This document shows, one piece after another, positions 8,795 to 20,336 of a DNA stretch of 32,000 nucleotides (the first letter of the stretch is position 1; every line of letters starts with the position of its first letter). Location of the stretch: contig NC_014033.1 in assembly GCF_000025925.1 (NCBI RefSeq), positions 990,001 through 1,022,000 of the forward strand. The letters run 5' to 3'. Below the pieces are notes generated by a model. It had not been told where the DNA came from. It did not search any database and worked only from the letters and a program-made list of their open reading frames with translations. The translations under genes and the position numbers were made by a program. The stretch comes from Xylanibacter ruminicola 23. Lineage in GTDB: Bacteria > Bacteroidota > Bacteroidia > Bacteroidales > Bacteroidaceae.

Positions 8795-8836
8795 CAAAAA
8801 AAAGATGGCACGAACAAATATCCGTGCCACTTTTTT
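8795..8836 (-). terminator. Bidirectional hairpin terminator immediately after the lysin-like gene
   Basis: Stem TGGCACG / CGTGCCA (8806-8812 / 8823-8829). A T-run follows on the minus strand (plus-strand A-run 8795-8803), and a T-run also follows on the plus strand (8831-8836). Confidence 0.7.
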
Positions 8837-9260
8837 AAGCGTTATTTTGGCTTAGATTCCAGCCTTGTAACATGGGGATGGGATTGATGTCGGTGGTGCC
8901 GTTTTCGTGGATGGCCATGGCTGCGGCGACGGTTATCCAGCGCAGTGGTTGCTCTGCTGGGTTGCCCAGGCACTCCAGGGCTCCGATACCCGATAGCTGT
9001 GCCACATGATCGATATACGCGCGGGTGTTGTTTTCGGCCACCGGTGCCCATTTATGGATGATGTCGCGGATGTTGTACAACCGGTATTTATGATAGTACG
9101 TGCGCGTAAGCAGTCTGAAGGCGGCGCGCCACCCCCACTCCATACTCTCAAACTGGCAGAAGTCGCCATCCTGTTGCTGTGCCTTCATGCCCTTCCACTT
9201 ATCGCCGCTAAGTCGGATGTTAAGTGGGTTGCAATTACGTAGTCCTCGTGGTGTGCTCAT
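8835..9260 (-). CDS. Phage-type cell-wall hydrolase-like protein (family often annotated 'structural protein P5')
   Basis: 141 aa. The N-terminal RNCNPLNIR motif resembles the NNPGNIR signature. No signal peptide. The ATG overlaps the stop of the upstream small membrane protein as ATGA. The family assignment is from memory of the motif, not from a search. Confidence 0.5.
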   Translation of the reverse strand: MSTPRGLRNCNPLNIRLSGDKWKGMKAQQQDGDFCQFESMEWGWRAAFRLLTRTYYHKYRLYNIRDIIHKWAPVAENNTRAYIDHVAQLSGIGALECLGNPAEQPLRWITVAAAMAIHENGTTDINPIPMLQGWNLSQNNA

Positions 9261-9499
9261 GATGGTAGTCGTTTGCTGATGATGTTTACATAGTGGTTAA
9301 GCCCGAAGATAGAGGCGGCAAACAGGAATGCCTGTGCCACGTAGAATAGCAGTCCGGTGGCCACATCGTTGATGCTCACCACCTGATACGTCACCAGCCC
9401 GATGCTGCTCACAATGAGCAGCACGGCACTGGCATACTGAGAGGTTTTAAAACTTGTGTTTTCCATGGTACTTAGATTTAGTAAGTGCTGCAATGACAT
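9257..9499 (-). CDS. Small two-TM membrane protein, holin-like by position
   Basis: 80 aa, or 69 aa if it starts at the ATG at 9466 (MENTSFK). Two hydrophobic helices (AVLLIVSSIGLVTYQVV and LLFYVAQAFLFAASIFGL) and a basic C-terminus (SKRLPS). Translationally coupled to the lysin-like gene. Confidence 0.45.
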   Translation of the reverse strand: MSLQHLLNLSTMENTSFKTSQYASAVLLIVSSIGLVTYQVVSINDVATGLLFYVAQAFLFAASIFGLNHYVNIISKRLPS

Positions 9500-9574
9500 A
9501 GATTACAACCCTGACGATTACTTTTACTGTTTTGTTCATAATTCTGTGTGTTTAATGAGTATCTGTTTACGTTA

Positions 9575-9582
9575 CAAAGATA
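9575..9582 (-). promoter_or_regulatory. -7 promoter box TATCTTTG (minus strand) for the membrane protein / lysin pair
   Basis: Plus-strand CAAAGATA is the reverse complement of TATCTTTG. It lies 75 nt upstream of the ATG at 9499. Confidence 0.4.
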
Positions 9583-9764
9583 CGAAAAATAATCGAAACG
9601 GCCAAGGGTTTTATGATAAATTTTTGTGCAAAAACTTTATTTAAAGTAACACTATAGTTTACATATAATAAAATATTGTTATCTATGTGTTTACAATGTT
9701 TATATTTTTGTTTCTTTTGTACATATTGATACACCAAACACTTGTACATATCAATATTTTTTAG

Positions 9765-9772
9765 TACCTTTG
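9765..9772 (+). promoter_or_regulatory. -7 promoter box TACCTTTG for the primase-helicase gene
   Basis: Matches TAnnTTTG and lies about 107 nt upstream of the ATG at 9880. It is preceded by direct repeats (TTGTACATAT x2) and an inverted repeat (ATATTGATA / TATCAATAT). Confidence 0.45.
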
Positions 9773-9879
9773 TTGCTGGTTGGGATTTAAGCCTGAGCAC
9801 GGGCCCCAGCAATCGCTGAAAAAACGTCTATGGCGATTGTAGTGCAAGACACAAAACTAAACCAAATGTAACAATCATT

Positions 9880-12648
9880 ATGACCCAAAACTTATTAGAG
9901 AAAATCTACGACCATTCAAATAATGGTCTAGATATCATTTTCGACGTATGCCCTCAGGCCGTCGATGCAGTAGCCAACAAGCGTAAGTTCCGTTTGCGTA
10001 GCAACGAGCACACCCCTTCGGCTTGTGTTTATCCGCCTACAGGAAACGTCGCCTACTGGCACGTAAAGGACTTTGGCATGGGCGAAGGCGAAGGTTACTT
10101 CTCGCCTATCGACCTGTACATGTGGGATCGCGGCTACACGCAAGCCCAGTTTGCAATAGCTGTTCAGGAGTTGGCCGAGCAGTATGGTGTACAGGACGAA
10201 CTGAAGCAGGGTGCTAACAAGCCCGAGGTGATTAAGCGCCCCGCCCTGCCCTGCGAAATTGGCAAGCCCGTTAGGGTTACCTATGGCGATGGTTTTACTG
10301 CTGCCGACCTGAGTGTTTGGGGACCTTGTGTAAAGGCCGAACACCTTATGGAATTGGGTTGGCGTACAGTGGCGGCCATTACCCGTACCAGCGATGGCAC
10401 CACTACCATTAAGAAACCCACCGACACCTATCCTATATATGCGCAGGTATGCATGTATCAGGATGACGATGGCAATATGCAGTCGTTTATCAAGGTTTAC
10501 GAACCCAAGAACTTCAACAAGTCGTTCCGTTTCAGTATCATCGGGCATAAGCCCCAGCACTATCTCTTCGGACTGGCAGCCCTGCGCCGCAAGTACGAGG
10601 AACGTGGCGAAGTTAAGCTCGACGAGGTGGTGATAGTTTCGGGTGGCAGCGATGCCGCAAACTGCTTAAGCTTGGGCTATCAGCCCGTATGGCTGAGCAG
10701 CGAGACCGAGACACTGCAGGAGTCCGATCTGAAGTTGCTAATGAAATACGCCAAGCGCGTGGTTAACATCCCCGATATCGATGATACCGGCATGAAGGCA
10801 GGTCGCCGACTGGCACTTAGCCTGCCCACAATTCATACCGCTTGGATGACTGCCAGCGACATGCACCTACTGCACGACAACCGTGGTCGCTATCGCAAGG
10901 ACCTGAAGGATTATATCCAGCTTAATCCCCATCGTGCTGCTATGCGACGCCTGATTAGTCGTGCCCAATGTGCACAGTATTGGATAGAGCGCCACGATAA
11001 AGATGGCAACATCTCCTATTCCATCTCAGCTGCCCGGCTTAACTATTATCTGGCACTTAACGGCTACTACACGTTGAAGGACGACGCGCACAAGGACCCC
11101 GTTTACATTCATATAGATGGTATTAAGGTTACGCGCGTGATGGCCAAAACGATTACCAACTTCCTGTTCACTCAGGCGCAGCGCGAGGGATTAGACGAGG
11201 CATTACAGAATCGACTGCTGCGCAGCCACGATTTGCCAACAAACAGCGTGAGCCATCTAATAGAGTGCGACAACCTCGACTTTAATAATTCCACACCCAC
11301 ATCACAGCGATTTTATTTCCGTAATGGTTGGGTTGAAGTAACGGGCAGTGACATCACACGGCATCCCTACTCTAATCTGTGCGACAGTTATGTGTGGGCC
11401 GATAATATCGTGGAGCATGATTATCGTAACATGCCGGCGATGTTCACGGTTGATAAGAATAGTGAGGGGCAGCTTGTGGTAGCTATTACCGAAAATCAAC
11501 CTAGCAAACTGTTTCAGTTTGTGATAAATGCCTCCAGGCTGTACTGGCGCAAGGTTGATGAGGGCCATCAATCACTTACCCTCCAGGAGCGCAACGACGA
11601 GAATCAATGCCTGCTGGCCAAGCTGGTTAATATTGGTTATCTGCTGCATGGCTATAAGTCGGAGTCGGCTGCATGGGCCACATTCTGTATGGACTCTACG
11701 ATGGGCGAAACCGAGGACGAGTGCAATGGGCGTAGCGGCAAGTCGTTCTATCTCAAGGCACTAGGCCAACTGCTTAACACTTTTAGCATCGAGGCGCGTG
11801 TAAAGTCGGTGGTCGAGAACCGATTCTTGTTTGATGGTGTGAGCGAGAAAACCGATCTTATCATTGTAGATGAGTGCCACAAGGCCCTGAACTTTGATTA
11901 TTTCTTTGGCAGGATCACCGGCACCTTCCGTGGCGAGGCCAAAGGCGATCACCCGTTCGAGATTCCATTCTCCAAGAGTCCTAAGTTTGCCTTTGGTACC
12001 AACTATACCATCCGCAAGAACGATCCCAGCACCATGGGACGTGTTTGGCCGCAGATATTCTCCGATTACTATCACGAGAAAACCAAGCAAAACGACTATC
12101 TGCAAACACGTAAGATTAGCGACGACTTTGGTTGCAACCTGATGGGCTCAGAATATCCCGAGAACGACTGGCAGGCCGATATCGCCTTCCTCATGCAGTG
12201 CGTAAAGCTTTACCTGTCGTTGCCCGCAGCTGAGCGCAAGATAATGCCACCAATGCAGCAGGTTGAGCGCCGTGCTGAGCGTGCCGCTGTGGGTAAGGAC
12301 TTCGAGGAGTGGGCCGAGGTGTATTTTGCGCCTGATGGCGGTAATCTCGATCGCGAAATTAAGCAAGACGAGATGTATGCCAACTTTAGTCGCGAGATAA
12401 CATATCGTGTATCCAAGAACGTGTTTACCAAGCGCCTCAAAGCCTACTGCGATTATGCCTCGCACATCCATTGCCTTAATCCCGCATCAATTACTGGTAA
12501 ACCTAAGGATGGCGAACGTATTCTGCGCCGCGCCGATGGAGTGCTTTCGTACTTTTACTATGTGCAGTCGACTGAGGAATATGAGGCTAAACTAGCCGAG
12601 AGAGCGCAGAGAGGATCCGAGTCCGAAGAGCAGGTCATCATATTCTAA
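9880..12648 (+). CDS. Primase-helicase-like replication protein (toprim-like domain + P4/D5/VirE-type P-loop NTPase)
   Basis: 922 aa. Toprim-like segment: VVIVSGGSDAAN ... NIPDIDDTGMKAGRRLA. Walker A is NGRSGKSF and Walker B is DLIIVDE, in the C-terminal half. The N-terminal EHTPSACVY resembles the TPSF core of the DnaG CHC2 zinc finger but lacks the cysteines. Confidence 0.75.
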   Translation: MTQNLLEKIYDHSNNGLDIIFDVCPQAVDAVANKRKFRLRSNEHTPSACVYPPTGNVAYWHVKDFGMGEGEGYFSPIDLYMWDRGYTQAQFAIAVQELAEQYGVQDELKQGANKPEVIKRPALPCEIGKPVRVTYGDGFTAADLSVWGPCVKAEHLMELGWRTVAAITRTSDGTTTIKKPTDTYPIYAQVCMYQDDDGNMQSFIKVYEPKNFNKSFRFSIIGHKPQHYLFGLAALRRKYEERGEVKLDEVVIVSGGSDAANCLSLGYQPVWLSSETETLQESDLKLLMKYAKRVVNIPDIDDTGMKAGRRLALSLPTIHTAWMTASDMHLLHDNRGRYRKDLKDYIQLNPHRAAMRRLISRAQCAQYWIERHDKDGNISYSISAARLNYYLALNGYYTLKDDAHKDPVYIHIDGIKVTRVMAKTITNFLFTQAQREGLDEALQNRLLRSHDLPTNSVSHLIECDNLDFNNSTPTSQRFYFRNGWVEVTGSDITRHPYSNLCDSYVWADNIVEHDYRNMPAMFTVDKNSEGQLVVAITENQPSKLFQFVINASRLYWRKVDEGHQSLTLQERNDENQCLLAKLVNIGYLLHGYKSESAAWATFCMDSTMGETEDECNGRSGKSFYLKALGQLLNTFSIEARVKSVVENRFLFDGVSEKTDLIIVDECHKALNFDYFFGRITGTFRGEAKGDHPFEIPFSKSPKFAFGTNYTIRKNDPSTMGRVWPQIFSDYYHEKTKQNDYLQTRKISDDFGCNLMGSEYPENDWQADIAFLMQCVKLYLSLPAAERKIMPPMQQVERRAERAAVGKDFEEWAEVYFAPDGGNLDREIKQDEMYANFSREITYRVSKNVFTKRLKAYCDYASHIHCLNPASITGKPKDGERILRRADGVLSYFYYVQSTEEYEAKLAERAQRGSESEEQVIIF

Positions 12649-12678
12649 CGGTACTGTTTTTGTGCTTTTTTGTTTCAG

Positions 12679-12706
12679 GCCTGCCCCGTTTGGGGCGGGC
12701 TTTTTT
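12679..12706 (+). terminator. Rho-independent terminator after the primase-helicase gene
   Basis: GCCTGCCCC-gttt-GGGGCGGGC forms a 9-bp stem with one G-U pair, followed by TTTTTT. Confidence 0.8.
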
Positions 12707-12710
12707 ATGG

Positions 12711-12935
12711 GGTGTTGCAAATATTGCAGTTGCAATAGCAAATATACTATCTTCATACTCATTTTTAGAATACTATATATACCCTGTTTTTTAGATTTTA
12801 ATTGCAACACCGCAACAGATAGTCATTCTAGAAATCTATCTATTTGTTAATCAGACGTATATGCAGTCGTCTTGGTATTGCAAATAGGTGTTGCAATTGT
12901 GTTGCAGATAAAAACCGCCGCATATTTGCAACACC
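12711..12935. promoter_or_regulatory. Iteron-like repeat field (candidate replication origin or operator array)
   Basis: The perfect 10-mer GGTGTTGCAA occurs at 12711 and 12887. Its reverse complement TTGCAACACC occurs at 12802 and 12926. Degenerate copies: ATTGCAG 12723, GTTGCAA 12729, GGTATTGCAA 12874, TGTGTTGCAG 12898. An AT-rich core lies at about 12736-12800. Small palindromes: AGATAG..CTATCT (12817-12841) and AGACG..CGTCT (12853-12871). Confidence 0.6.
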
Positions 12936-12985
12936 CAATCCCCCTTTTCAGCGCCTCTGCGCATCCCCTTTTACCCTAACACTAA

Positions 12986-13019
12986 CCCCGCTCTACTATC
13001 ATAGTAAAGCGGGGTTAGT
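12986..13019. repeat. 34-nt hairpin repeat R1 (CCCCGCTCTACTATCATAGTAAAGCGGGGTTAGT)
   Basis: Long imperfect palindrome, AACCCCGCTCTACTAT / ATAGTAAAGCGGGGTT. It lies 13 nt downstream of the toxin stop and is 32/34 identical to R2 in the same orientation. Confidence 0.8.
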
Positions 13020-13032
13020 ATTAGTGGGGATG

Positions 13033-13356
13033 TTATTTTATTCTTAAAATAAGCGTTTCGGGGTTCATCCTTACGTCCCAGATATCAACTACATGTACTG
13101 TGTCTGCTGCTTCGTCGTAGTAATGAATAAGTTTAAAACGGCGATTCATAAGATGTCTACGACGATACGATACCGATTCGTTGGCCAACAGTTCTTCGGG
13201 GGGATATGATTCGGGGAATAACTTTACACGCTCTTCAAAAGCGGCTATTTCTGTTTTCCAACGTAAGGCTGTTGATTTTCCGAATTCTAAGTATGCATAG
13301 TTAATGTGCTCATCAAGCAGAATCAGCACATTTTCGTGCCAGATTATCTTAGCCAT
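13033..13356 (-). CDS. Type II toxin, RelE/ParE family
   Basis: 107 aa from MAKIIWHENV. The C-terminal pattern FKLIHYYDEAADTVHVVDIWDVRMNP is typical of ParE/RelE toxins. It overlaps the upstream ORF by 13 nt. The ATG at 13404 was rejected because it gives a 61-nt overlap. Confidence 0.7.
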   Translation of the reverse strand: MAKIIWHENVLILLDEHINYAYLEFGKSTALRWKTEIAAFEERVKLFPESYPPEELLANESVSYRRRHLMNRRFKLIHYYDEAADTVHVVDIWDVRMNPETLILRIK

Positions 13357-13619
13357 GGGTATTTTTTCGAAAGGCGGTTCCACATCTGTTCCGACGTAGC
13401 CCATTTACTGGGATTGTTGCGATCCTCCCATGCCTGATTAATTCTGGCTTTAGCTTCGTCAATGTTCTTAGCTCCGAATACGGGCATGCTATCCCAATTC
13501 ATATCATCAATCTCGTCGTGTACATAATGCACACCGTCATGATGCTGCGTAGCTAATTCTGCAGCGGGTTCGCTGGCAGTTTGGCATTTAGTTTCTATGT
13601 CTTTTATGTCTTCACTCAT
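13344..13619 (-). CDS. Candidate cognate antitoxin (no family recognised)
   Basis: 91 aa with an acidic N-terminal half. The call rests on its position immediately upstream of, and overlapping, the ParE-like toxin. I recognise no RHH or HTH signature. Confidence 0.45.
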   Translation of the reverse strand: MSEDIKDIETKCQTASEPAAELATQHHDGVHYVHDEIDDMNWDSMPVFGAKNIDEAKARINQAWEDRNNPSKWATSEQMWNRLSKKYPWLR

Positions 13620-13650
13620 TTTTTTATGCTGTTGAGTTATCTTTCGTGTG

Positions 13651-13658
13651 CAAATATA
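13651..13658 (-). promoter_or_regulatory. -7 promoter box TATATTTG (minus strand) for the toxin-antitoxin pair
   Basis: Plus-strand CAAATATA. It lies 31 nt upstream of the ATG at 13619. Confidence 0.45.
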
Positions 13659-13721
13659 CGATTAAGTATGCAAACTACAAAATAAATCACGATTTTTTTT
13701 AGTTTCTGCTGAAACTAGCAC

Positions 13722-13755
13722 CCCCGCTCTACCATGATAGTAAAGCGGGGTTAGT
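13722..13755. repeat. 34-nt hairpin repeat R2 (CCCCGCTCTACCATGATAGTAAAGCGGGGTTAGT)
   Basis: 32/34 identical to R1 in direct orientation. It lies 54 nt downstream of the stop of the BIG2 lipoprotein gene. Confidence 0.8.
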
Positions 13756-13809
13756 GTGATTGGGCGGGGAGTCATCGCCTGGGGGCGATGGCTGGGTGAT
13801 TAGGGCACC

Positions 13810-15291
13810 TTAGGGGGTAAGCGTCCAGGTAAGGTTGTTGCTACCAGTACTTGAGCTGGCGAAATTCAGGTCAGTCAATCCCGTGCCATCCCATGTGTTG
13901 CTGGTTACGGTTACGCCGTTAATGGTCACAGCGCCAGTGCTGCCATGGTCATAATGTCCTTTTCCTATCGGCCAGGCAGCAAAGTGGTTTCTGGTAGCCT
14001 GAACCTGGGTGATGCCTGCGGTAATGGTGATACTGCCAAAGGTGCTACTTACTCCGCTGCCGATGCCAGCGCCATGACCATATGAAATGGCAATAATAGT
14101 GCCGCCACTGATGGTGATAGCGCCACATGAGGAGCCACTGAAACCGCTGCCGATGCCGGCACCTTCCCCACTATTGGCATTAACCGTGCCGCCACTGATG
14201 GTGATAGCGCCACATGAGGATTTAAAATCACCGCTGCCGATGCCGGCACCATTCATACTAGAACTGGCATTAACCGTGCCGCCACTGATGGTGATATGGC
14301 CGCATGAGGCGCCATCGTAACCGCTCCCAATGCCGGCTGCCAAATCACCACCGGTGGCAGTGAGAGTGCCTGTGCCATTAATGGTGAGCGTTTTGCCTAT
14401 GGGGCCTGCCTGGATGGCGGGATATTCCCTGTAGAAGCCCTTAACAGTGTTGGTGCCTGTAATGGTGATGGTGGCATTGCCATCACAGGTAAGGCCTGCC
14501 CAATTGGTGCTGGAGTTGTTACCGCCATTGATGGTAACATCTTTCAGCTCTACGCTGGCACCTGCGGCTATGCTAATCTTGTAATTGCCGGTCAGAGTGC
14601 CCGTAAGCACATCGCCATTCTGGGCTATGTAATCACCACTCAAAGCTGCAAGATTGATAGCTGGATCCACTGTCAGCGTATAGCTGACTGTCTTTGTGTT
14701 ATAAGTGTATTCGTCGCTGTCGGTAATGATGGCTGTAATAGTAGCTGTTCCAGCACCTTTTATTGTTACATCGCCGTTTGTGGCATTAACTTCAGCCACT
14801 GTTATATTATTCGAAGTGTATGATACCACTCCATCACCCACAATGGTTAGAGGGTTATTAAATGCAACATCGTTAATATACTTGGGTACGCTGGCAGTAG
14901 CAAAGCTGATGCTACCCTCCTTCTTGGTGACCGTTACTTCTACCGTGGTGGTGTTCTCGCTGAAGATTTCGGTGCGGTAGTAGTCGTCCTCGCCTTGGGC
15001 CTTGATGGTGATGCGGGCGGTGCCGGGGCTGACGGCGGTGATGAGGCCGGTGGCGTCGACGGTGGCTACGGCGGGGTTATCGGATGAGTAGAGCAGCACT
15101 ACATGAGCCTGTGTAGAAGCCTGTATGGGCTTGCTCTCACCTACTTTCAGCGTTAACTGGGCTCTTAGCACCTGCAAGGCAGGGGTAATGGGATTGTCGA
15201 GCATGTCGAACAGCTCGCCGCAACTGGTCATCACAAGGGGCAACGTGAGCATCATGCCCCACCCCAAAATCTGTCGGATAATACGTTTCAT
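13810..15291 (-). CDS. Surface lipoprotein with two BIG2-type Ig-like domains and C-terminal Gly-rich, Cys-containing beta-helix-like repeats
   Basis: 493 aa with lipoprotein signal LPLVMTSC. BIG2-like segments: YSSDNPAVATVDATGLITAVSPGTARITIKA and YTSNNITVAEVNATNGDVTIKGAGTATITA. There are 3-4 repeats of GAGIGSGxxxxSCGxITISGGTVNA. Confidence 0.7.
   Translation of the reverse strand: MKRIIRQILGWGMMLTLPLVMTSCGELFDMLDNPITPALQVLRAQLTLKVGESKPIQASTQAHVVLLYSSDNPAVATVDATGLITAVSPGTARITIKAQGEDDYYRTEIFSENTTTVEVTVTKKEGSISFATASVPKYINDVAFNNPLTIVGDGVVSYTSNNITVAEVNATNGDVTIKGAGTATITAIITDSDEYTYNTKTVSYTLTVDPAINLAALSGDYIAQNGDVLTGTLTGNYKISIAAGASVELKDVTINGGNNSSTNWAGLTCDGNATITITGTNTVKGFYREYPAIQAGPIGKTLTINGTGTLTATGGDLAAGIGSGYDGASCGHITISGGTVNASSSMNGAGIGSGDFKSSCGAITISGGTVNANSGEGAGIGSGFSGSSCGAITISGGTIIAISYGHGAGIGSGVSSTFGSITITAGITQVQATRNHFAAWPIGKGHYDHGSTGAVTINGVTVTSNTWDGTGLTDLNFASSSTGSNNLTWTLTP
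14054..14340. repeat. Intragenic tandem DNA repeats, period 87-90 bp
   Basis: An identical 35-mer, GTGCCGCCACTGATGGTGATAGCGCCACATGAGGA, occurs at 14099-14133 and 14186-14220. A third copy at 14276-14310 matches at about 31/35. CCGCTGCCGATGCC occurs at 14054, 14144 and 14231. Confidence 0.85.
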
Positions 15292-15335
15292 GTTGAAATT
15301 TAGTAATATCTTAATAAGTTAATTAATTTTGCCTG

Positions 15336-15343
15336 CAAATTTA
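15336..15343 (-). promoter_or_regulatory. -7 promoter box TAAATTTG (minus strand) for the BIG2 lipoprotein gene
   Basis: Plus-strand CAAATTTA. It lies 44 nt upstream of the ATG at 15291. Confidence 0.4.
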
Positions 15344-15407
15344 CGAAATAGTTGATAATCAGCCAAATAAAATCGGGAAAAAGTTTGGTAGTTTGGCAAT
15401 TTTTTTG

Positions 15408-15415
15408 TATCTTTG
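15408..15415 (+). promoter_or_regulatory. -7 promoter box TATCTTTG for the HU-like gene
   Basis: Matches TAnnTTTG and lies 46 nt upstream of the ATG at 15462. Confidence 0.5.
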
Positions 15416-15461
15416 CAATGGTAATAATACCACAAAACACATTTAATAAAAACACACAATT

Positions 15462-16100
15462 ATGGCAACAAACGAAATTAAGTTGGGCATCAACTTGCGC
15501 CAGAACAAGAATGCCCGCAACTCGGGGTACGGTAAGTACTATCCCGAAATCGACACGCAGACCACTCTCTCGCTGCGAGGCTTTGCCAAGCACATGAGTG
15601 ATCATGGTTCAATCTATTCGCTCGACATCATCGAGGGCGTGTTGAAGAAAATCACCCAGTGCCTGCCCGAACTCATCAGTCAGGGCGTGCCAGTACGCAT
15701 GGAGCCCCTGGGCACATTCCTGCCCACCTGCGATGTAGAGAAGCCCATTCTGAACATCGCGGCCATGGAGAATGCCGACCCTAACGAGGTGGTAAAGGGC
15801 GTGCACATCCGATTCCTGCCCTACGGTGTGGAGGACGACAACATCACCTCGCGCCGATTCAAGCAGGAGTTCTGTTCGCTCGAGTTCCGCAACATTGTGG
15901 ATACGGTTAAGGTTACCGTGGATGGCAAGGAGAAGAAGGTTACCACGCTGAAGCCTATCGCCACGGCCATAGCCGAGTATAAGTCGGGGCACGAGGCCAG
16001 CGCGCCATCAACCGGCGGTGGTAGTCAGCCATCAACCGGCGGCGGTAACACCGGTGGCAATACCGGTGGCGGCAGCAGCCATGAGCCTATCGGTGATTAA
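15462..16100 (+). CDS. Bacteroidales-type HU-like DNA-binding protein with a Gly/Thr/Ser-rich C-terminal tail
   Basis: 212 aa. The N-terminus (YGKYYPEIDTQTTLSLRGFAKHMSDHGSIYSLDIIEGVLKKITQCLPELISQG) resembles the HU_HIG-like family common in Bacteroidales accessory regions. The tail reads STGGGSQPSTGGGNTGGNTGGGSS. Confidence 0.65.
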   Translation: MATNEIKLGINLRQNKNARNSGYGKYYPEIDTQTTLSLRGFAKHMSDHGSIYSLDIIEGVLKKITQCLPELISQGVPVRMEPLGTFLPTCDVEKPILNIAAMENADPNEVVKGVHIRFLPYGVEDDNITSRRFKQEFCSLEFRNIVDTVKVTVDGKEKKVTTLKPIATAIAEYKSGHEASAPSTGGGSQPSTGGGNTGGNTGGGSSHEPIGD

Positions 16101-16140
16101 AAAAAAAGAAGGCCGGGAGCTTATATAGCTCTCGGCCTTC
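16099..16140 (-). terminator. Hairpin terminator between convergent HU-like and ppiD genes
   Basis: GAAGGCCGGGAGCT / AGCTCTCGGCCTTC forms a 14-bp stem with one G-U pair. The plus-strand A-run 16099-16107 gives a U-tract for the minus-strand ppiD transcript. Confidence 0.8.
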
Positions 16141-16160
16141 GGAAGTAAATACTTAAACAA

Positions 16161-18296
16161 TTAGAAGAACAGGTAGCGGTTGTCTACCACACCAGCCTTC
16201 TGATACAATTCCTGCATGAAGATGCGAGCAGCCTGAGTGGCCTGCATCTGGAGCTGAGCCTCGGTCTGAGCAGCGTCGAACTTAGCGCCGGCGCGGTTGC
16301 TCTTCTTAACTACCTTGAACAGGTAAGCACCACCGTTACCCTTAACCACGTGCTTGCTGAACTCGCCAGCCTTAGCAGCTGCAACGGCACCAGCCAGAGC
16401 GGGCTCTGAAGCACCTGTGGCCTGTACGAATACAGGAGCCGAGAATGTGATCTGATTAACCGCGTCGATGCGAGCACCCTTAGCCTTAGCTGCAGCCAGG
16501 TCGTTAACACCGGCCAGCTTAGCCTTGATCTGCTCGAACTTCTTATCGCGGATAACCTCGGCCTTAAGAACATCCTTCAGGCTGCTCATGTCGCGGTAGC
16601 CTACAGGGTTGATCTTAGTGAGGGCTACAACCAGCAGGTGATCGTTGTTACCGCACTCGTACAGTGGGCTAACCTCGCCTGGCTTAGCGTCGAAGATCCA
16701 CTTCATAGTCTCACGGGTAGAACGCAGGTTGGCTACGTTGTGCTCGTAGTTGAACAGATCCTGACGTGGAGTAACCTTGAAGCCGAACTTAGCAGCGTTC
16801 TTCTCCATATCCTCGATAGTCTTGTTCTCGCTTACAAACTGGCTGAACTTGTTGTAAGCCTCAGAGTATGTCTGCTTAGAGAAATCGATAGTGTGCTTGA
16901 TAACAGCTGCATCGTACTTGTCAACCATAGCCTTGCGAGCGGTAACCTGCAGGATGATGTTGCCCTGAGTAAACTCGAGGTTCTTAACATCGTTTACAGC
17001 CAGGTTGTTGATAGCTGCGAGGTAGGTCTTCGACTCCTCGTCGATAGAGCTGCTGTTCTCGTACATAGCTGATGTGAGCCACTGCTTGGTGCCTGGCTGA
17101 CCGTACTTCTGAGCCAGCTGCTCGAAATCAGCACCAGCCTTCAGAGCTGTGTAGATGCTGTCGGCAGTCTTCTTAGCGGCCTCTACGGTAGCACCGCCAA
17201 CCTGAATCTGGCGATACTCGATAGAGTCAGGAGCCTGAGTCTTGGCAATCAGCTTAACAACGTTGAGAGTGTTATCGAAAGCGGTCTCGAATACAGCTGA
17301 AGTCTGACCTACAGCCATTGAATCGAGCTTAGCAGCGATGTCTGATGGATAAGCGCGCTTGGTAGCAGCCATGCCAGTGTAGGCAAACTGCGACTGGGCC
17401 TTGCGAGCCACCTCGGCAGCGTTAGCACCGCTCTGCAGCTTCTGGGCTGCGTCGGTCATAGTCTTCATCAGCTCCTTGCGGTCGGCTGCTGAAGCTACTA
17501 CCTGGAAATCAACATACTTAATATCGCGGCTCTCAACGTCCTGCTTAAACATCTCCTTCTCCTCGTCGTACTTAGCCTTCAGATCCTTGTCGTCAACCTT
17601 TACATCGTTGTCGTTGATTGAAGAGTAAGCGATAGAAGCCAGCTGGATGTCGCTCTCGGTGTTCTGACCCTCGAAAGCCATCTTAGCTGAGATGGGGTTA
17701 GAGAGCAAGCAGTTGCTGAGCAGAGCCTGGTACTTCTGAGCCAGGGTGTTGGTGCGCAGCTGCTTCTCGATGAACTGCCAGTACTTGTAGATGGTCTGGT
17801 AGCTCTCAGCCAGCTGAGGATTTGAGCCTGCCTTCTTGTAATCGTCCAGGAACTTGGTGAGCATGGTAACGTCGAAACGACCAGTCTGCTGGTTTACGAA
17901 TGGGCTCTGCATCAACATGGGGTTTGTACCCTCCTTCATGATGTTCTGCAACTCCTCGTCGGTAACTGTCAAACCAAGCTTCTCTGCCTCGTTGGCAATG
18001 ATCTGCTCGTTAACGTACTGACTCCAAACCTGATCCTTAATCTGGTTCAGCTCCTCCTCAGAGAAGTTCTCGCGGTTCTGAGTAATCTTCAGAACGTCCT
18101 GATACTCATCAACCAGGGCCTGGAAGTCCTGAACATTGATTTTGTTTCCTAACACTTCGCCAATCTGCTGTCGCTGCTGGTTCTTGGTTGCTTCGCAAGA
18201 ACGGAAAGCTTCCTCAGCAATGAAGGCGAAAAGGCCTAAGCCGATAATGCAAACGAGGGCTACGCCTCTTTTACGGATTTTTCCTAATGCTGCCAT
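16161..18296 (-). CDS. ppiD: Periplasmic chaperone / peptidyl-prolyl isomerase PpiD-like
   Basis: 711 aa. The N-terminal anchor MAALGKIRKRGVALVCIIGLGLFAFI and the long SurA-like body are typical of Bacteroidetes PpiD. Synteny with CNNM/CBS and lptC supports the call. Confidence 0.75.
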   Translation of the reverse strand: MAALGKIRKRGVALVCIIGLGLFAFIAEEAFRSCEATKNQQRQQIGEVLGNKINVQDFQALVDEYQDVLKITQNRENFSEEELNQIKDQVWSQYVNEQIIANEAEKLGLTVTDEELQNIMKEGTNPMLMQSPFVNQQTGRFDVTMLTKFLDDYKKAGSNPQLAESYQTIYKYWQFIEKQLRTNTLAQKYQALLSNCLLSNPISAKMAFEGQNTESDIQLASIAYSSINDNDVKVDDKDLKAKYDEEKEMFKQDVESRDIKYVDFQVVASAADRKELMKTMTDAAQKLQSGANAAEVARKAQSQFAYTGMAATKRAYPSDIAAKLDSMAVGQTSAVFETAFDNTLNVVKLIAKTQAPDSIEYRQIQVGGATVEAAKKTADSIYTALKAGADFEQLAQKYGQPGTKQWLTSAMYENSSSIDEESKTYLAAINNLAVNDVKNLEFTQGNIILQVTARKAMVDKYDAAVIKHTIDFSKQTYSEAYNKFSQFVSENKTIEDMEKNAAKFGFKVTPRQDLFNYEHNVANLRSTRETMKWIFDAKPGEVSPLYECGNNDHLLVVALTKINPVGYRDMSSLKDVLKAEVIRDKKFEQIKAKLAGVNDLAAAKAKGARIDAVNQITFSAPVFVQATGASEPALAGAVAAAKAGEFSKHVVKGNGGAYLFKVVKKSNRAGAKFDAAQTEAQLQMQATQAARIFMQELYQKAGVVDNRYLFF

Positions 18297-18336
18297 AATG
18301 TATTTAAATTTTTAATTATTATTCATAAAACGGGTG

Positions 18337-18344
18337 CAAAATTA
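18337..18344 (-). promoter_or_regulatory. -7 promoter box TAATTTTG (minus strand) for ppiD
   Basis: Plus-strand CAAAATTA. It lies 40 nt upstream of the ATG at 18296. Confidence 0.45.
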
Positions 18345-18388
18345 ATAAATTTGTTCGAAACGACCTAATTTTTTCGTATAAATTTTGG

Positions 18389-19666
18389 CTATTCGGTAAT
18401 GATTAATCGCACCAATTCGATTTTTGTTGCCGTATTCTTGATGATTTTAAACTCGTAGCGGCCCATTTTTACTACCTCGTTCAGTTTTGGGAACGACTGA
18501 TACTCGTGCAGAATCAGGCCTCCAAGGGTCATGTATTCATCGCTTTCGGGCAGGTCGAGATCAAACATCTCGTTAATCTTGGCTATCTCCAGTCGGGCTG
18601 ATAGCATGTATTCGTGGTCGCTCAGTTGTTTGGCCACGTGGTTAGTATTGTCGTGCTCGTCTTCAATCTCGCCTGTAATCTCCTCCATGATATCCTCGAG
18701 CGATACCAGTCCGCTGGTGCCGCCAAACTCATCTACCACCACGGCCAGCGAGCGTTTCTGCTGCATCAGCTGGGTCATCAGCTTCGATGCCAGCATGGTC
18801 TCGGGTACGAAAGAAATCTCACGTACCAATTGGCAATTTACAATGGACGATTGATAATTGTTTTTGTCCAGTCGGAACATGTCGCTGGAGTGTACATAAC
18901 CGATGATATGGTCGATATCCTCGTGATACACCAGAATCTTTGAGTGGCCGCTCTCGATAAACACCTGTCGCAGCTGTTCGATGGTGTCGGTATCCTCTAC
19001 CGCATCAATCTCGGTACGGGGCACCATACAGTCGCGAATCTTCGTCTCCGAGAAGTCGAGCGCATTCTGGAAAATCTTTACTTCTTCCTCGATTTCATCG
19101 TCATTATCGGCGTTATCGATACTGGTCTGAACCAGGTAGTCGAGGTCTACTTTCGTAAACTCCTTTTCCTCGCCGGCACTCTTCATGCGGATGCCTATCA
19201 GGCGCAACAGTCCCTTCGACAGCAGCGTGGCAAAGCGCGATATGGGGTAAAGCACCACATAGCATATCCACGCAGGCACGGCAAACACCGTGAGCAATGT
19301 GTTAGGATTGTTCTTAAAGATAGATTTAGGCAGGAACTCGCCTGTAAACAGCACTACCAGTGTAGATAGCAGCGTATCGGCCGTAACCCTCACCCCGTCG
19401 CTTAGTGGCGCAAACAGTGTGGCGTCGAACAGCTGGGCAAACAGGATACCGTAGATTACCAGTGCGATGTTGTTGCCCACCAGCATGGTTGACACAAAGT
19501 TGTTTGGATGCTGGTAGAACACATGGATGATGCGCTGCGAAAAACGGTTCTTTTCGCGATCCATCTCGGCACGCAGGCGGTTGGACGAAATAAAGGCTAT
19601 CTCCATACCCGAAAAGAAGGCCGAGAACAGCATCGAAACCAGTAGCCAGATAATCGTTGTAGTCAT
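18389..19666 (-). CDS. CNNM (DUF21)-CBS-CorC_HlyC family membrane protein (hemolysin-family / GldE-like)
   Basis: 425 aa. An N-terminal 4-TM DUF21 is followed by a CBS pair and then GTSGLVSLEDIMEEITGEIEDEHD, typical of the CorC/HlyC transporter-associated domain. Confidence 0.8.
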   Translation of the reverse strand: MTTTIIWLLVSMLFSAFFSGMEIAFISSNRLRAEMDREKNRFSQRIIHVFYQHPNNFVSTMLVGNNIALVIYGILFAQLFDATLFAPLSDGVRVTADTLLSTLVVLFTGEFLPKSIFKNNPNTLLTVFAVPAWICYVVLYPISRFATLLSKGLLRLIGIRMKSAGEEKEFTKVDLDYLVQTSIDNADNDDEIEEEVKIFQNALDFSETKIRDCMVPRTEIDAVEDTDTIEQLRQVFIESGHSKILVYHEDIDHIIGYVHSSDMFRLDKNNYQSSIVNCQLVREISFVPETMLASKLMTQLMQQKRSLAVVVDEFGGTSGLVSLEDIMEEITGEIEDEHDNTNHVAKQLSDHEYMLSARLEIAKINEMFDLDLPESDEYMTLGGLILHEYQSFPKLNEVVKMGRYEFKIIKNTATKIELVRLIITE

Positions 19667-19667
19667 A

Positions 19668-20336
19668 TCATCCGTTCTTTCTATGTTTCTGCAGCTGTGG
19701 GCGCAGCGATGGCTGTACCTGTGCGGTATCGGGCTGGGCGCCTGGTTTCTGCGTGGTGGTATCGTTCTGCTCGCCGGTCATATCCTCGCGCTGGAACGAT
19801 CCCTTCGAGTTGCTGACGGTATAGTGCGTCATATGCTCGTCCGACAGGAAATAGGTGCCCTCCATGCTGCGTTCGGGGGTGGTAACCTTCGAGTATACGT
19901 TAGAGTACAGTTCGTGGCGCATACCGTCCCAAAACAGCTCCTCGCTCTCGAACAGCAGGCCGTTAATGTTACGTATGCGTACGCGACCGCGCAGATGCCA
20001 CAGCTTCTTCTGATCGTAATACTTGGCTGAGTCGGCCTGGATATAGGCTTCTACGTGGAATTTCTCGTCGAACTGCTCGAAGAAAACACCCTTTTCGAAC
20101 AGCCAGTACGAGGGATTCTTAACCACGTTCACATCCCAGCGCTCGGTTACAATCTTGTATTTGATCACGCCGCTGTCGCTAATCAGCGTATTAACGCCAT
20201 ACGACGTCATCACCGACACCGAATCGCGGTCGTGTATAGCAGCTGCCGTGTGCTCGTGCACCTCGGTACAGCCGCCTAATATCATTGCTGCAAACGCGGC
20301 TACGGCTATTATTCTACCTTCCACTTTGCAAACCAT
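19668..20336 (-). CDS. lptC: LPS export system periplasmic lipoprotein LptC-like
   Basis: 222 aa with lipobox AMILGGC. Size and position upstream of the CNNM/CBS gene match Bacteroidetes LptC. The call is mostly contextual. Confidence 0.55.
   Translation of the reverse strand: MVCKVEGRIIAVAAFAAMILGGCTEVHEHTAAAIHDRDSVSVMTSYGVNTLISDSGVIKYKIVTERWDVNVVKNPSYWLFEKGVFFEQFDEKFHVEAYIQADSAKYYDQKKLWHLRGRVRIRNINGLLFESEELFWDGMRHELYSNVYSKVTTPERSMEGTYFLSDEHMTHYTVSNSKGSFQREDMTGEQNDTTTQKPGAQPDTAQVQPSLRPQLQKHRKNG

Follow-up and report, generated by a model that had tools for sequence, protein, structure and literature searches.

A repeat field 3' of a primase-helicase gene in Xylanibacter ruminicola 23: candidate replication origin of a phage-related chromosomal module

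The chromosome of Xylanibacter ruminicola 23 (NCBI RefSeq assembly GCF_000025925.1, contig NC_014033.1) carries a gene for a 922-aa protein of the primase-helicase type that is directly followed by a non-coding field of short repeats, the subject of this study. The window analysed comprises 32,000 nucleotides (positions 990,001 to 1,022,000 of the forward strand), and all coordinates are positions in this 32-kb window, with position 1 as its first letter (Table 1). The non-coding stretch (12649-13032, 384 bp) lies between two convergent open reading frames (ORFs) and is bounded by the stop codon of the 922-aa ORF on the left and by that of a ParE-like ORF (13033-13404, minus strand) on the right. 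The repeat field starts 63 nt past the stop of the 922-aa ORF, right behind a terminator. A pattern search of the whole 32 kb located the exact 10-mer GGTGTTGCAA at 12711-12720 and 12887-12896 on the plus strand and its exact reverse complement at 12802-12811 and 12926-12935; there is no fifth exact copy in the window. A copy with one mismatch, GGTATTGCAA, occupies 12874-12883, and outside the field just two isolated matches with up to one mismatch exist (3806 and 27579). The seven matches observed at this stringency were reached in none of 100 dinucleotide-preserving shuffles (mean 2.25). With one mismatch allowed in the core TGTTGCA, nine sites emerge, starting at 12713, 12722 and 12728 (orientation a), 12803 and 12811 (orientation b), 12876, 12889 and 12900 (orientation a, starts 13 and 11 bp apart) and 12927 (orientation b). 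Including the degenerate copies, all nine fall within 12711-12935. An 18-nt inverted repeat (12707-12724/12922-12939), made up of the first left copy and the terminal copy together with flanking bases, brackets the whole field, and the GC content is 20-23% at 12720-12799 versus 45-55% in the flanks. A second cluster of the word is present neither elsewhere in the 32 kb nor in 14-kb homologous loci. Much of this had been noticed in an initial annotation made from the letters alone: the ~380-bp non-coding stretch after a terminator, the two exact copies and two exact reverse complements, the degenerate copies (all among our nine sites), a number of copies beyond chance and their placement on both sides of an AT-rich segment, which lies between the left cluster and the middle pair, are all borne out. 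No DnaA box (up to one mismatch) and no Bacteroides-type -33/-7 promoter pair were detected in the field, which contains one weak -7 motif. Rfam searches yielded nothing relevant at gathering thresholds and meaningless hairpin matches outside the field at relaxed ones, and a tRNA scan of the window did not reveal a tRNA gene.

Table 1. Features of the repeat field and its surroundings in the 32-kb window
Feature	Position	Strand	Remarks
922-aa primase-helicase, presumed initiator	9880-12648	+	Toprim-like region, SF3-like helicase, winged-helix-like C-terminus
Intrinsic terminator of the primase-helicase gene	12677-12706	+	GGCCTGCCCC-GTTT-GGGGCGGGC, then T run
Left iteron cluster	12711-12736	+ (orientation a)	Three overlapping or adjacent copies: exact GGTGTTGCAA at 12711, degenerate AATATTGCAG at ~12720, degenerate CAGTTGCAAT at ~12727; two to three copies in homologous loci
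AT-rich core	12737-12801	none	GC 20-23%; presumed unwinding region
Pyrimidine box	12780-12801		Window version TACCCTGTTTTTTAGATTTTAA; end of the AT-rich core
Middle iteron pair	12802-12818	- (orientation b)	9 bp apart, inverted relative to the left cluster; exact TTGCAACACC and a degenerate copy inside CGCAACAG (site 12811-12817)
Second spacer	12819-12873	none	~32% GC; sequence not kept between loci
Right iteron cluster	12874-12907	+ (orientation a)	GGTATTGCAA, GGTGTTGCAA, TGTGTTGCAG; starts 13 and 11 bp apart
Terminal inverted copy	12926-12935	-	TTGCAACACC; single inverted copy also in homologs
C-rich tail	12936-12985	none	ATCCCC(C)TTT twice, 25 nt apart; positional match to 'zone 2' elsewhere; may not belong to the origin
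Hairpin	12976-13024	none	24-nt arms; core recurs at 13722-13764
HU-HIG (HU-related) DNA-binding protein gene	15462-16100	+	Commonly adjoins the field on its right in the window's clade

For the 922-aa protein, Pfam returned no match at E<=0.001, and searches of PDB sequences, performed with the single sequence and with a profile, gave no matches. TIGR01391 (Toprim) matched weakly (residues 227-382, E 1e-4), the PHROG families phrog_28855 (4e-24) and phrog_239, 'DNA primase/helicase' (0.004), were hit, and PF19263 (DUF5906) was found on some homologs. Since Pfam, NCBIfam and PDB sequence searches provided no usable family, the domain call was taken from a structure model (AlphaFold2, mean pLDDT 82), according to which the protein consists of a Toprim primase and a D5/SaPI5-PriRep-like SF3 helicase. 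The best Foldseek matches among solved structures are the PrimPol of African swine fever virus (ASFV; 4e-9) and PriRep5 from the Staphylococcus aureus pathogenicity island SaPI5 (7ola/7om0, 1e-8, TM ~0.5 by target length), followed by MPXV E5/vaccinia D5 and a DnaG primase domain (5vaz). Walker A (CNGRSGKS) resides at residues 615-622 and Walker B (IIVDE) at 661-665. In 34 homologs with identities down to 52%, the catalytic motifs are invariant (E275, D299 and D301; G617, K621 and S622 of Walker A; D664 and E665 of Walker B). The last ~100 residues are modelled as a beta-helix-helix-beta unit, a beta-hairpin 'wing' and a final helix, with a winged-helix-like domain at ~826-897 that is followed by a tail. 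When the C-terminal 163 residues were modelled alone, nearly all matches were winged-helix DNA-binding proteins (PadR, Cdt1, Fur/Zur, ArsR, RTP, Orc/Cdc6), all of them weak. A C-terminal winged helix is likely from these models but not secure. The label 'primase-helicase' chosen in the initial annotation appears right on the basis of the structure model together with the weak Toprim, PHROG and DUF5906 matches, even though Pfam does not give it for the window protein itself.

Relatives of the protein are encoded at 79 loci in a scan at one genome per species, mostly in rumen and gut Prevotellaceae and Bacteroidaceae (loci are numbered L001 and so on); the window matches Xylanibacter ruminicola D31d at 99%. 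They comprise the window's own clade A (47-99% identical to the window protein) and a clade B (35-38%). In nearly all of ~75 genome loci, a repeated word occurs 3' of the gene in the same layout: a 7-8-mer recurs within 300-600 bp past the gene with the offsets and orientations seen in the window, and the word itself is a different one. The architecture is kept in ~70 related loci, Bacteroides phages among them. The literal 10-mer GGTGTTGCAA is common only to the two closest relatives, L001 and L013. The words of clade A are GTGTTGCA (window, L001, L013), GTGCTACA (L003), GTGTGCCA (L004), GTGACAGA (L006), ACTCACAT (L008), GTGCCACA (L010), GTGTAACA (many loci), GTTCCTGA (L030), GTGGAACA (L035) and ATGAACCA (L068), and in the distant clade GTCACAAA, ATCACAAA, GTAACAAA, GGTTGCAA, GATACAAA and GTTACGAA were found. 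The words share the frame TG-NNN-CA(-C/G-AT), the window version of which reads TG-TTG-CA. For the generic framework TGNNNCAN[AT]T we counted 5.3 occurrences per 330-bp field versus 0.41 in shuffles, and 29 loci exhibit 13 different majority cores. In clade A the full layout consists of a terminator (an equivalent hairpin precedes the field in most loci), two to three copies, an AT-rich core ending in the pyrimidine box, two inverted copies spaced 8-9 bp, a spacer, three tandem copies at 11 bp and a single inverted copy. A strict automatic test recovered the pattern a,a/b,b/a,a,a/b in 18 of 38 clade A loci, and its failures go back mostly to palindromic words or a wrong automatic choice of motif. 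The initial annotation had proposed to look for the 10-mer next to homologous genes and for its co-variation with the protein. This test turned out positive. Nearly all relatives beyond L001 and L013 carry words of their own at the same positions and in the same orientations, and word class tracks the protein phylogeny (r ~0.5 between protein identity and word similarity). A repeat dispersed over the genome, which would have spoken against a function in place, is not what we see, given a word density of 8 per kb in the fields versus 0.05 per kb over the remaining ~12 kb of each locus. Some loci carry more than one word or module. In L043 and L064 a single field, 180-460 nt past the gene, interleaves copies of two different words (GTCACAAA and GGTTGCAA) and could be a hybrid or dual-specificity origin. 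Two genome bins contain two modules each, with differing iteron classes in one case (L002 and L028 in the metagenome-assembled genome (MAG) RUG12181) and with the same class in the other (L049 and L066 in MAG RGIG7494).

The turnover of the word is concerted. We aligned the fields of L004, L006, L007, L008 and L010, whose proteins are mutually 79-93% identical, together with that of the partial locus L036. The columns of the frame and a pyrimidine box, CTTAGACCCnCAATTTTTCCTTTTTAAT, are invariant, and the 3-nt core is swapped at all of the ~8 positions, reading TGA in L006, ACT in L008, GCA/TCA in L004 and TGC in L010. The box sits immediately left of the middle pair (alignment columns ~168-195), whatever the iteron word. 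Within one word class, with proteins 72-85% identical, the iterons are the sole conserved islands and the spacers drift. Between the window and L001, identity amounts to 98.3% over the first 290 nt of the field versus ~81% at synonymous sites of the gene (dS 0.22, dN/dS 0.18), and L032 and L034 share 96% of the field versus 80% of third codon positions. Such values indicate that the iteron array is under purifying selection. In pairs of loci between which the class switches, on the other hand, identity of the field falls below that of third positions (57% versus 87%; 65% versus 80%). Because the field is constrained within a class and yet more divergent than third positions upon a class switch, it is either tightly kept or replaced as a unit, just as expected of a binding array that bears specificity.

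Which protein reads the repeats? The primase-helicase gene is the only gene that always adjoins the field in both clades, and binding of the field by the 922-aa protein is the best inference from these comparisons. In class-switch pairs, the proteins are 97-100% identical at residues 781-870 and then drop to 57-77% from residue 871 onward. The segment from 871 (wing, last helix and tail) is encoded next to the field, and the drop may be due to functional coupling or simply to co-transfer by recombination. Sliding identity profiles of the window with L009 (same word) versus L002 (different word) do not reveal any domain that tracks the word. Partial correlations are weakly positive for residues 726-900 in clade A and flat in clade B, and mutual information per column peaks at clade B alignment columns 505-511 and 915-940. 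Of all these signals, the sharp divergence from residue 871 onward is the only one that points to the C-terminus.

Taken together, we consider 12711-12935 to be the cognate binding-site array and most likely the replication origin of the upstream 922-aa primase-helicase, a reading to which we assign a probability of roughly three in four on comparative grounds; the comparison of homologous loci supports what the initial annotation had suggested as a candidate origin. Initiation could then proceed as follows. The protein would read the 9-11-bp iteron (TG-NNN-CA, here TG-TTG-CA) via its C-terminal DNA-binding module. The opposed copies flanking the AT-rich core would place helicase hexamers and the core would melt, with the helicase loading itself as hexamers by analogy with the SaPI Reps (PMC9371898). 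Cooperative binding at the three tandem copies on the right, set one helical turn apart, and at the last, inverted copy may load or stabilise further protomers, and the Toprim domain would finally prime synthesis. The pyrimidine box and the HU-HIG protein may have roles at the origin, too, the latter possibly as an accessory factor. In five clade B loci (L047, L052, L064, L079, L080) a different conserved box, AATAAATAAAGGGGA, precedes the tandem iterons, and both boxes are candidates for host-factor sites, HU-HIG sites or the start of priming. Several points weigh against the proposal. The iteron-reading region is not robustly localised, with weak C-terminal signals in clade A and none in clade B, and the C-terminal domain resembles winged-helix proteins weakly (best E 0.02). 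Linked sequences co-diverge anyway, and the correlation between word and protein tree is not by itself proof of an interaction; across the family, support for binding and replication is comparative rather than experimental. An episomal form was not found, two short metagenome contigs being linear fragments that lack terminal overlap. Finally, the window element lacks an integrase or excision function, which leaves a chromosome-embedded origin without an evident occasion to fire.

The genomic surroundings of the two clades differ. Clade B genes reside in 40-45 kb temperate phages, including the cultured BT-TP2 of Bacteroides thetaiotaomicron (PQ571279), with cI/Cro-like and LuxR-type regulators encoded upstream and a ClpP/S49-type head protease and a capsid-like protein downstream. 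BT-TP2 gp6 is a homolog of the window protein (36% identity over 99% of the query). At least eight copies of GGTTACRAA in both orientations are present in a 594-bp non-coding gap after gp7, a short ORF 3' of gp6 (field at 5040-5300 of L080); such an extra small ORF between gene and field is also found in the related F12 subclade. The iteron framework of clade B is NNNN-CAAA with four tandem copies. Replication is not discussed in the publication on BT-TP2 (PMC12694917), and in the literature searched we found neither a description of an origin for these temperate Bacteroidales phages or their chromosomal relatives nor anything pertinent on a gene cluster or cis element for this gene family. 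In IMG/VR, relatives of the protein are encoded by 326 stretches, of which the best 80, on contigs of up to ~47 kb, were kept; each of these is at most 38% identical to the window protein, i.e. no clade A member is among the best 80 of 326. In the Polaribacter phage Leef_1 (30% identity), ORFs follow directly after the gene and the 700 nt examined contain no comparable field. A scan of IMG/VR for the window's own iterons as tandem GTGTTGCA gave more than 120 matches, about what chance predicts for 16 specified bases; just two of the matching contigs carry a primase-helicase homolog, and the main iteron there is TTGTCACAAA. Ten of the IMG/VR contigs (L167, L173, L174, L180, L193, L203, L214, L216, L230, L238) exhibit two tandem GTGTTGCA pairs ~200 bp apart without a homolog of the gene and may represent an unrelated iteron family using the same word.

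Clade A modules, in contrast to these phages, are located amid housekeeping genes at various chromosomal positions: next to SurA-like/CorC genes in the window and L162, at rpsO-truB-ftsX in L288, at EF-Ts/PorV in L289 and at tilS/RNase E in L290. Housekeeping genes make up the window flanks. Integrase, capsid and terminase genes are missing from the entire 32-kb window and, for five other clade A loci, from the 10 kb around them, the phage families F2-F11 (cI/Cro-like, head protease, capsid) are absent from the window and the clade A loci, and around 8800-16100 there are no att-like direct repeats apart from a hairpin pair at a toxin-antitoxin cassette. The window module, an orphan in the chromosome, either derives from the replication module of temperate Bacteroidales phages or has a common source with it. 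Its constant clade A partners are one or two upstream ORFs of no known family and the HU-HIG gene, which starts 562-584 bp past the primase-helicase stop in L162, L288, L289 and L290; in the window, the toxin-antitoxin cassette and a Big_2/beta-helix gene come between field and HU-HIG gene. Upstream, the window encodes an M15/endolysin-like ORF (8835-9499, minus strand; phrog_873, 1e-38) and a small holin-like membrane ORF (family F19), a pair that recurs in several clade A loci. L162 (1-22757) contains a 64%-identical module at the chromosomal site of the window (compared over 13000-19700; SurA 78% identical). This module has the iteron class TGTAACA, adjoins a capsule-type polysaccharide locus with a NusG/UpxY-like gene, and its HU-HIG protein is not alignable with that of the window. 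As many homologs reside on 3.0-3.6-kb contigs, a length close to that of gene and field together, the idea of a mini-plasmid was considered and rejected: L286 and L287 do not show terminal overlap, and these short contigs are assembly breaks and not circles.

The region to the right of the field has features of its own. A 43-nt hairpin-forming sequence occurs twice (12986-13028 and 13722-13764, 88% identical) around the ParE-like/antitoxin pair (13033-13619, minus strand). Because the two copies bracket this cassette, the hairpin at 12976-13024 marks the edge of the cassette and is not part of the origin. The same two hairpins surround a different RelE/ParE-type pair in L001 (9108-9136 and 9909-9937; 58% nucleotide identity inside), a HigB/HTH_3 pair is found at the same place in L164 (13080-13744), and the metagenome contig L286 ends exactly in the cassette hairpin. 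Between iteron field and HU-HIG gene there thus seems to be a slot for swappable toxin-antitoxin cassettes. Next to it lies the gene for a surface or tail-fibre-like Big_2/beta-helix-repeat protein (13810-15291, minus strand), which contains 87-nt tandem repeats at 14021-14337 and is situated between cassette and HU-HIG gene. To the right of the iterons, between +290 and +400 from the stop of the primase-helicase gene, a 'zone 2' of 21-23-bp repeats is present in L004, L006, L009, L010, L017, L018, L020, L026, L028, L029, L032, L034 and L036 and, as the C-rich tail, in the window. Its units often have an internal palindrome and share the words ATTACGGC or CCTTATTG independent of the iteron class. 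Zone 2 may be a second binding array or the promoter/operator of the HU-HIG gene.

Among other explanations, that of an operator or regulatory array was already named in the initial annotation. Here, the repeats would be sites for a regulator that controls neighbouring genes or terminates or insulates transcription and would have no part in replication; the binder could possibly be the primase-helicase as autoregulator, the HU-HIG protein or, in some loci, the RteC-like product of an upstream gene. Operators, too, typically consist of repeated sites in inverted and direct orientation, the clade B field lies between early (replication) genes and downstream genes, and many clade A loci contain the HU-HIG gene ~570 bp downstream on the same strand, so that part of the gap must hold its promoter. 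RteC is a regulator from Bacteroides conjugative transposons, and one 385-aa ORF upstream of the primase-helicase gene (L164, 8646-9803) comes near the threshold of the RteC family (PF09357, 24.8 versus 25.3 bits); upstream ORFs of comparable length in L162 and L289 matched nothing informative. However, in the window and in no fewer than eight further clade A loci the field is followed by a convergent gene, and there is thus no downstream promoter to regulate. Furthermore, the field is present where HU-HIG and RteC-like ORFs are absent, that is in most clade B loci and, with regard to the upstream side, in the window. Eight to nine sites around a core of 20% GC with tandem copies at 11 bp form an origin-like pattern, and the single weak -7 motif does not make up a promoter pair. 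An operator array fits poorly and appears improbable to us.

The field could also be a relic, i.e. a former origin that is now decaying unused in a prophage remnant with its repeats still recognisable. This would agree with the lack of capsid, terminase and integrase genes in the window and around the five other clade A loci, with the adjoining endolysin-like and holin-like genes and with the missing clade A members among the best 80 of 326 IMG/VR loci. Decay is hardly compatible with an intact gene under purifying selection (dN/dS 0.18), a field more conserved than synonymous sites (in L032/L034 as in the window/L001 pair) and catalytic motifs invariant in 34 homologs. In addition, the clade covers dozens of species with intact fields, and the concerted iteron turnover across them implies continued selection for a match between protein and site. 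We regard a relic as rather improbable, too. Very little speaks for a partition (centromere-like) or packaging site read by a segregation or terminase protein: short phased repeat arrays do occur in plasmid centromeres and some pac regions and zone 2 adjoins the field in many loci, but clade A fields have neither a ParA/ParB-type gene nor a terminase gene as a linked partner, the sole constant neighbour is the primase-helicase, and an AT-rich core between inverted sites is not a centromere feature. Least probable of all is a structured non-coding RNA with inverted copies as helix arms and lineage changes as compensatory substitutions, because, although the plus strand of 12707-12940 folds at z = -5.0 versus shuffles and inverted copies change together between loci in a manner that mimics covariation, a low folding energy follows automatically from inverted repeats, pairing explains neither the switch of tandem direct copies to the same word nor the excess of orientation a (five to six copies) over orientation b (three copies), and the upstream terminator, the lack of a promoter pair and the Rfam results noted above all point away from a transcript.

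If the field is the origin of the primase-helicase, the question arises what an orphan replication module does in a chromosome. We tentatively put forward, as a minority view, that the window's clade is a selectively maintained, integrase-less chromosomal replicon which fires in situ and over-replicates the surrounding chromosome. The parts of such a replicon, which we would list with considerable reserve, might be the unassigned ORF, the primase-helicase, the iteron origin and HU-HIG, often joined by lysis genes and toxin-antitoxin cassettes. Its range would be rumen Prevotellaceae and related Bacteroidales, and a trigger such as phage infection or stress is conceivable at a similarly speculative level. 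Should this be true, it could serve anti-phage or abortive defence, the amplification of local genes (one module copy sits at the head of a capsule locus) or hitch-hiking transfer, and conflict with related phages would be what drives the turnover of iteron and initiator specificity. An orphan, integrase-less clade under purifying selection is the unexpected part of our observations and may show an embedded replicon put to a new use. Apart from this, the analysis offers a concrete origin proposal with a specificity rule, namely the 3-nt core inside the TG-NNN-CA frame. For Xylanibacter and Prevotella few genetic tools are available, and the ~3.2-kb cassette of initiator and origin from such a chromosome is a candidate replicon for plasmid vectors. 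L004, L006, L007, L008 and L010 provide a natural series of initiators with switched iterons that suits the study of how origin specificity evolves.

How does the field compare with known systems? Phage P4 alpha combines primase, SF3 helicase and C-terminal origin-binding domain in one polypeptide that acts on octamer iterons in direct and inverted orientation; P4 has a second cis region, crr, several kb from ori as well as integrase and capsid-size genes. The window module resembles P4 in having a single primase/helicase polypeptide and short iterons in both orientations, and no second cluster of the word is present in the 32-kb window or in the 14-kb loci. The 50 best fold matches of the window protein do not include a P4 alpha chain; P4 alpha was not compared directly. 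Iterons of plasmids replicating via RepA, pi or TrfA are 17-22-bp direct repeats phased at ~22 bp, and the initiators are WH1-WH2 Rep proteins that recruit host DnaA and DnaB (PMC4980987, PMC5043065). Repeated initiator sites by an AT-rich unwinding element and a replicon-specific word are common to both, whereas the window units measure 9-11 bp, occur in both orientations and are phased at 9-13 bp, and the initiator itself is, according to its model, a helicase-primase. As 22-bp phased direct repeats and DnaA boxes are missing, the field is not an origin of the plasmid type. PICMI, satellites of Vibrionaceae, are ~6 kb in size, encode an integrase, AlpA, a DUF3987/DUF5906-type primase and few other genes and are inserted next to fis; rolling-circle-like, concatemer-forming replication has been reported for them (PMC10803314). 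A primase-type replication gene in the company of very few other genes is what the window module shares with them; of the PICMI hallmarks it has only this gene, with no integrase, AlpA or insertion at fis.

The closest parallel in layout is provided by SaPI origins, in which 6-12 iterons follow right after rep, with an AT-rich centre and at least two opposed iterons on each side (PMC9371898). The window field likewise lies immediately 3' of the initiator ORF, as do the fields of homologous loci, its nine sites are within the SaPI range, and the left cluster (three copies in orientation a), the core of 20-23% GC and the middle pair in orientation b reproduce the SaPI order. PriRep5 is among the best solved-structure matches, and, going by the model, the window initiator may likewise be an SF3-type helicase that loads itself, carries a fused primase and binds DNA with its C-terminus. 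In SaPIs and other phage-inducible chromosomal islands (PICIs), too, iteron words differ between elements and the initiator is specific to its own origin (SaPI1 Rep1, SaPI5 PriRep5). On the other hand, the window belongs to the Bacteroidota and not to Gram-positive cocci, there is no detectable sequence similarity, the primase domain is of the DnaG-type Toprim kind, the 9-11 bp iterons follow the TG-NNN-CA framework, and a right-hand block of three tandem copies and an inverted one as well as the conserved pyrimidine box are added. The likeness to phage-inducible islands drawn in the initial annotation holds for the layout of the origin and not for the element, in which integrase, att sites, repressor and packaging genes are all missing. 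By analogy, the field would work like an SaPI or P4 origin; the element is not a PICI, nor a P4-like satellite, PICMI or prophage, because the integrase, packaging and structural genes that define these are absent.

With respect to ancestry, the temperate phages around BT-TP2 come closest. They share with the window a full-length homologous primase-helicase and a non-coding field of at least eight iterons in both orientations, and this holds for the clade B loci in general. They differ in their 40-45 kb genomes with cI/Cro-like, protease and capsid genes, none of which accompanies the window module, in the NNNN-CAAA framework with four tandem copies and, in BT-TP2 and the F12 subclade, in the small ORF inserted between gene and field. 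The window element is not a prophage; its repeat field is homologous, at the level of the module, to the replication module of temperate phages.

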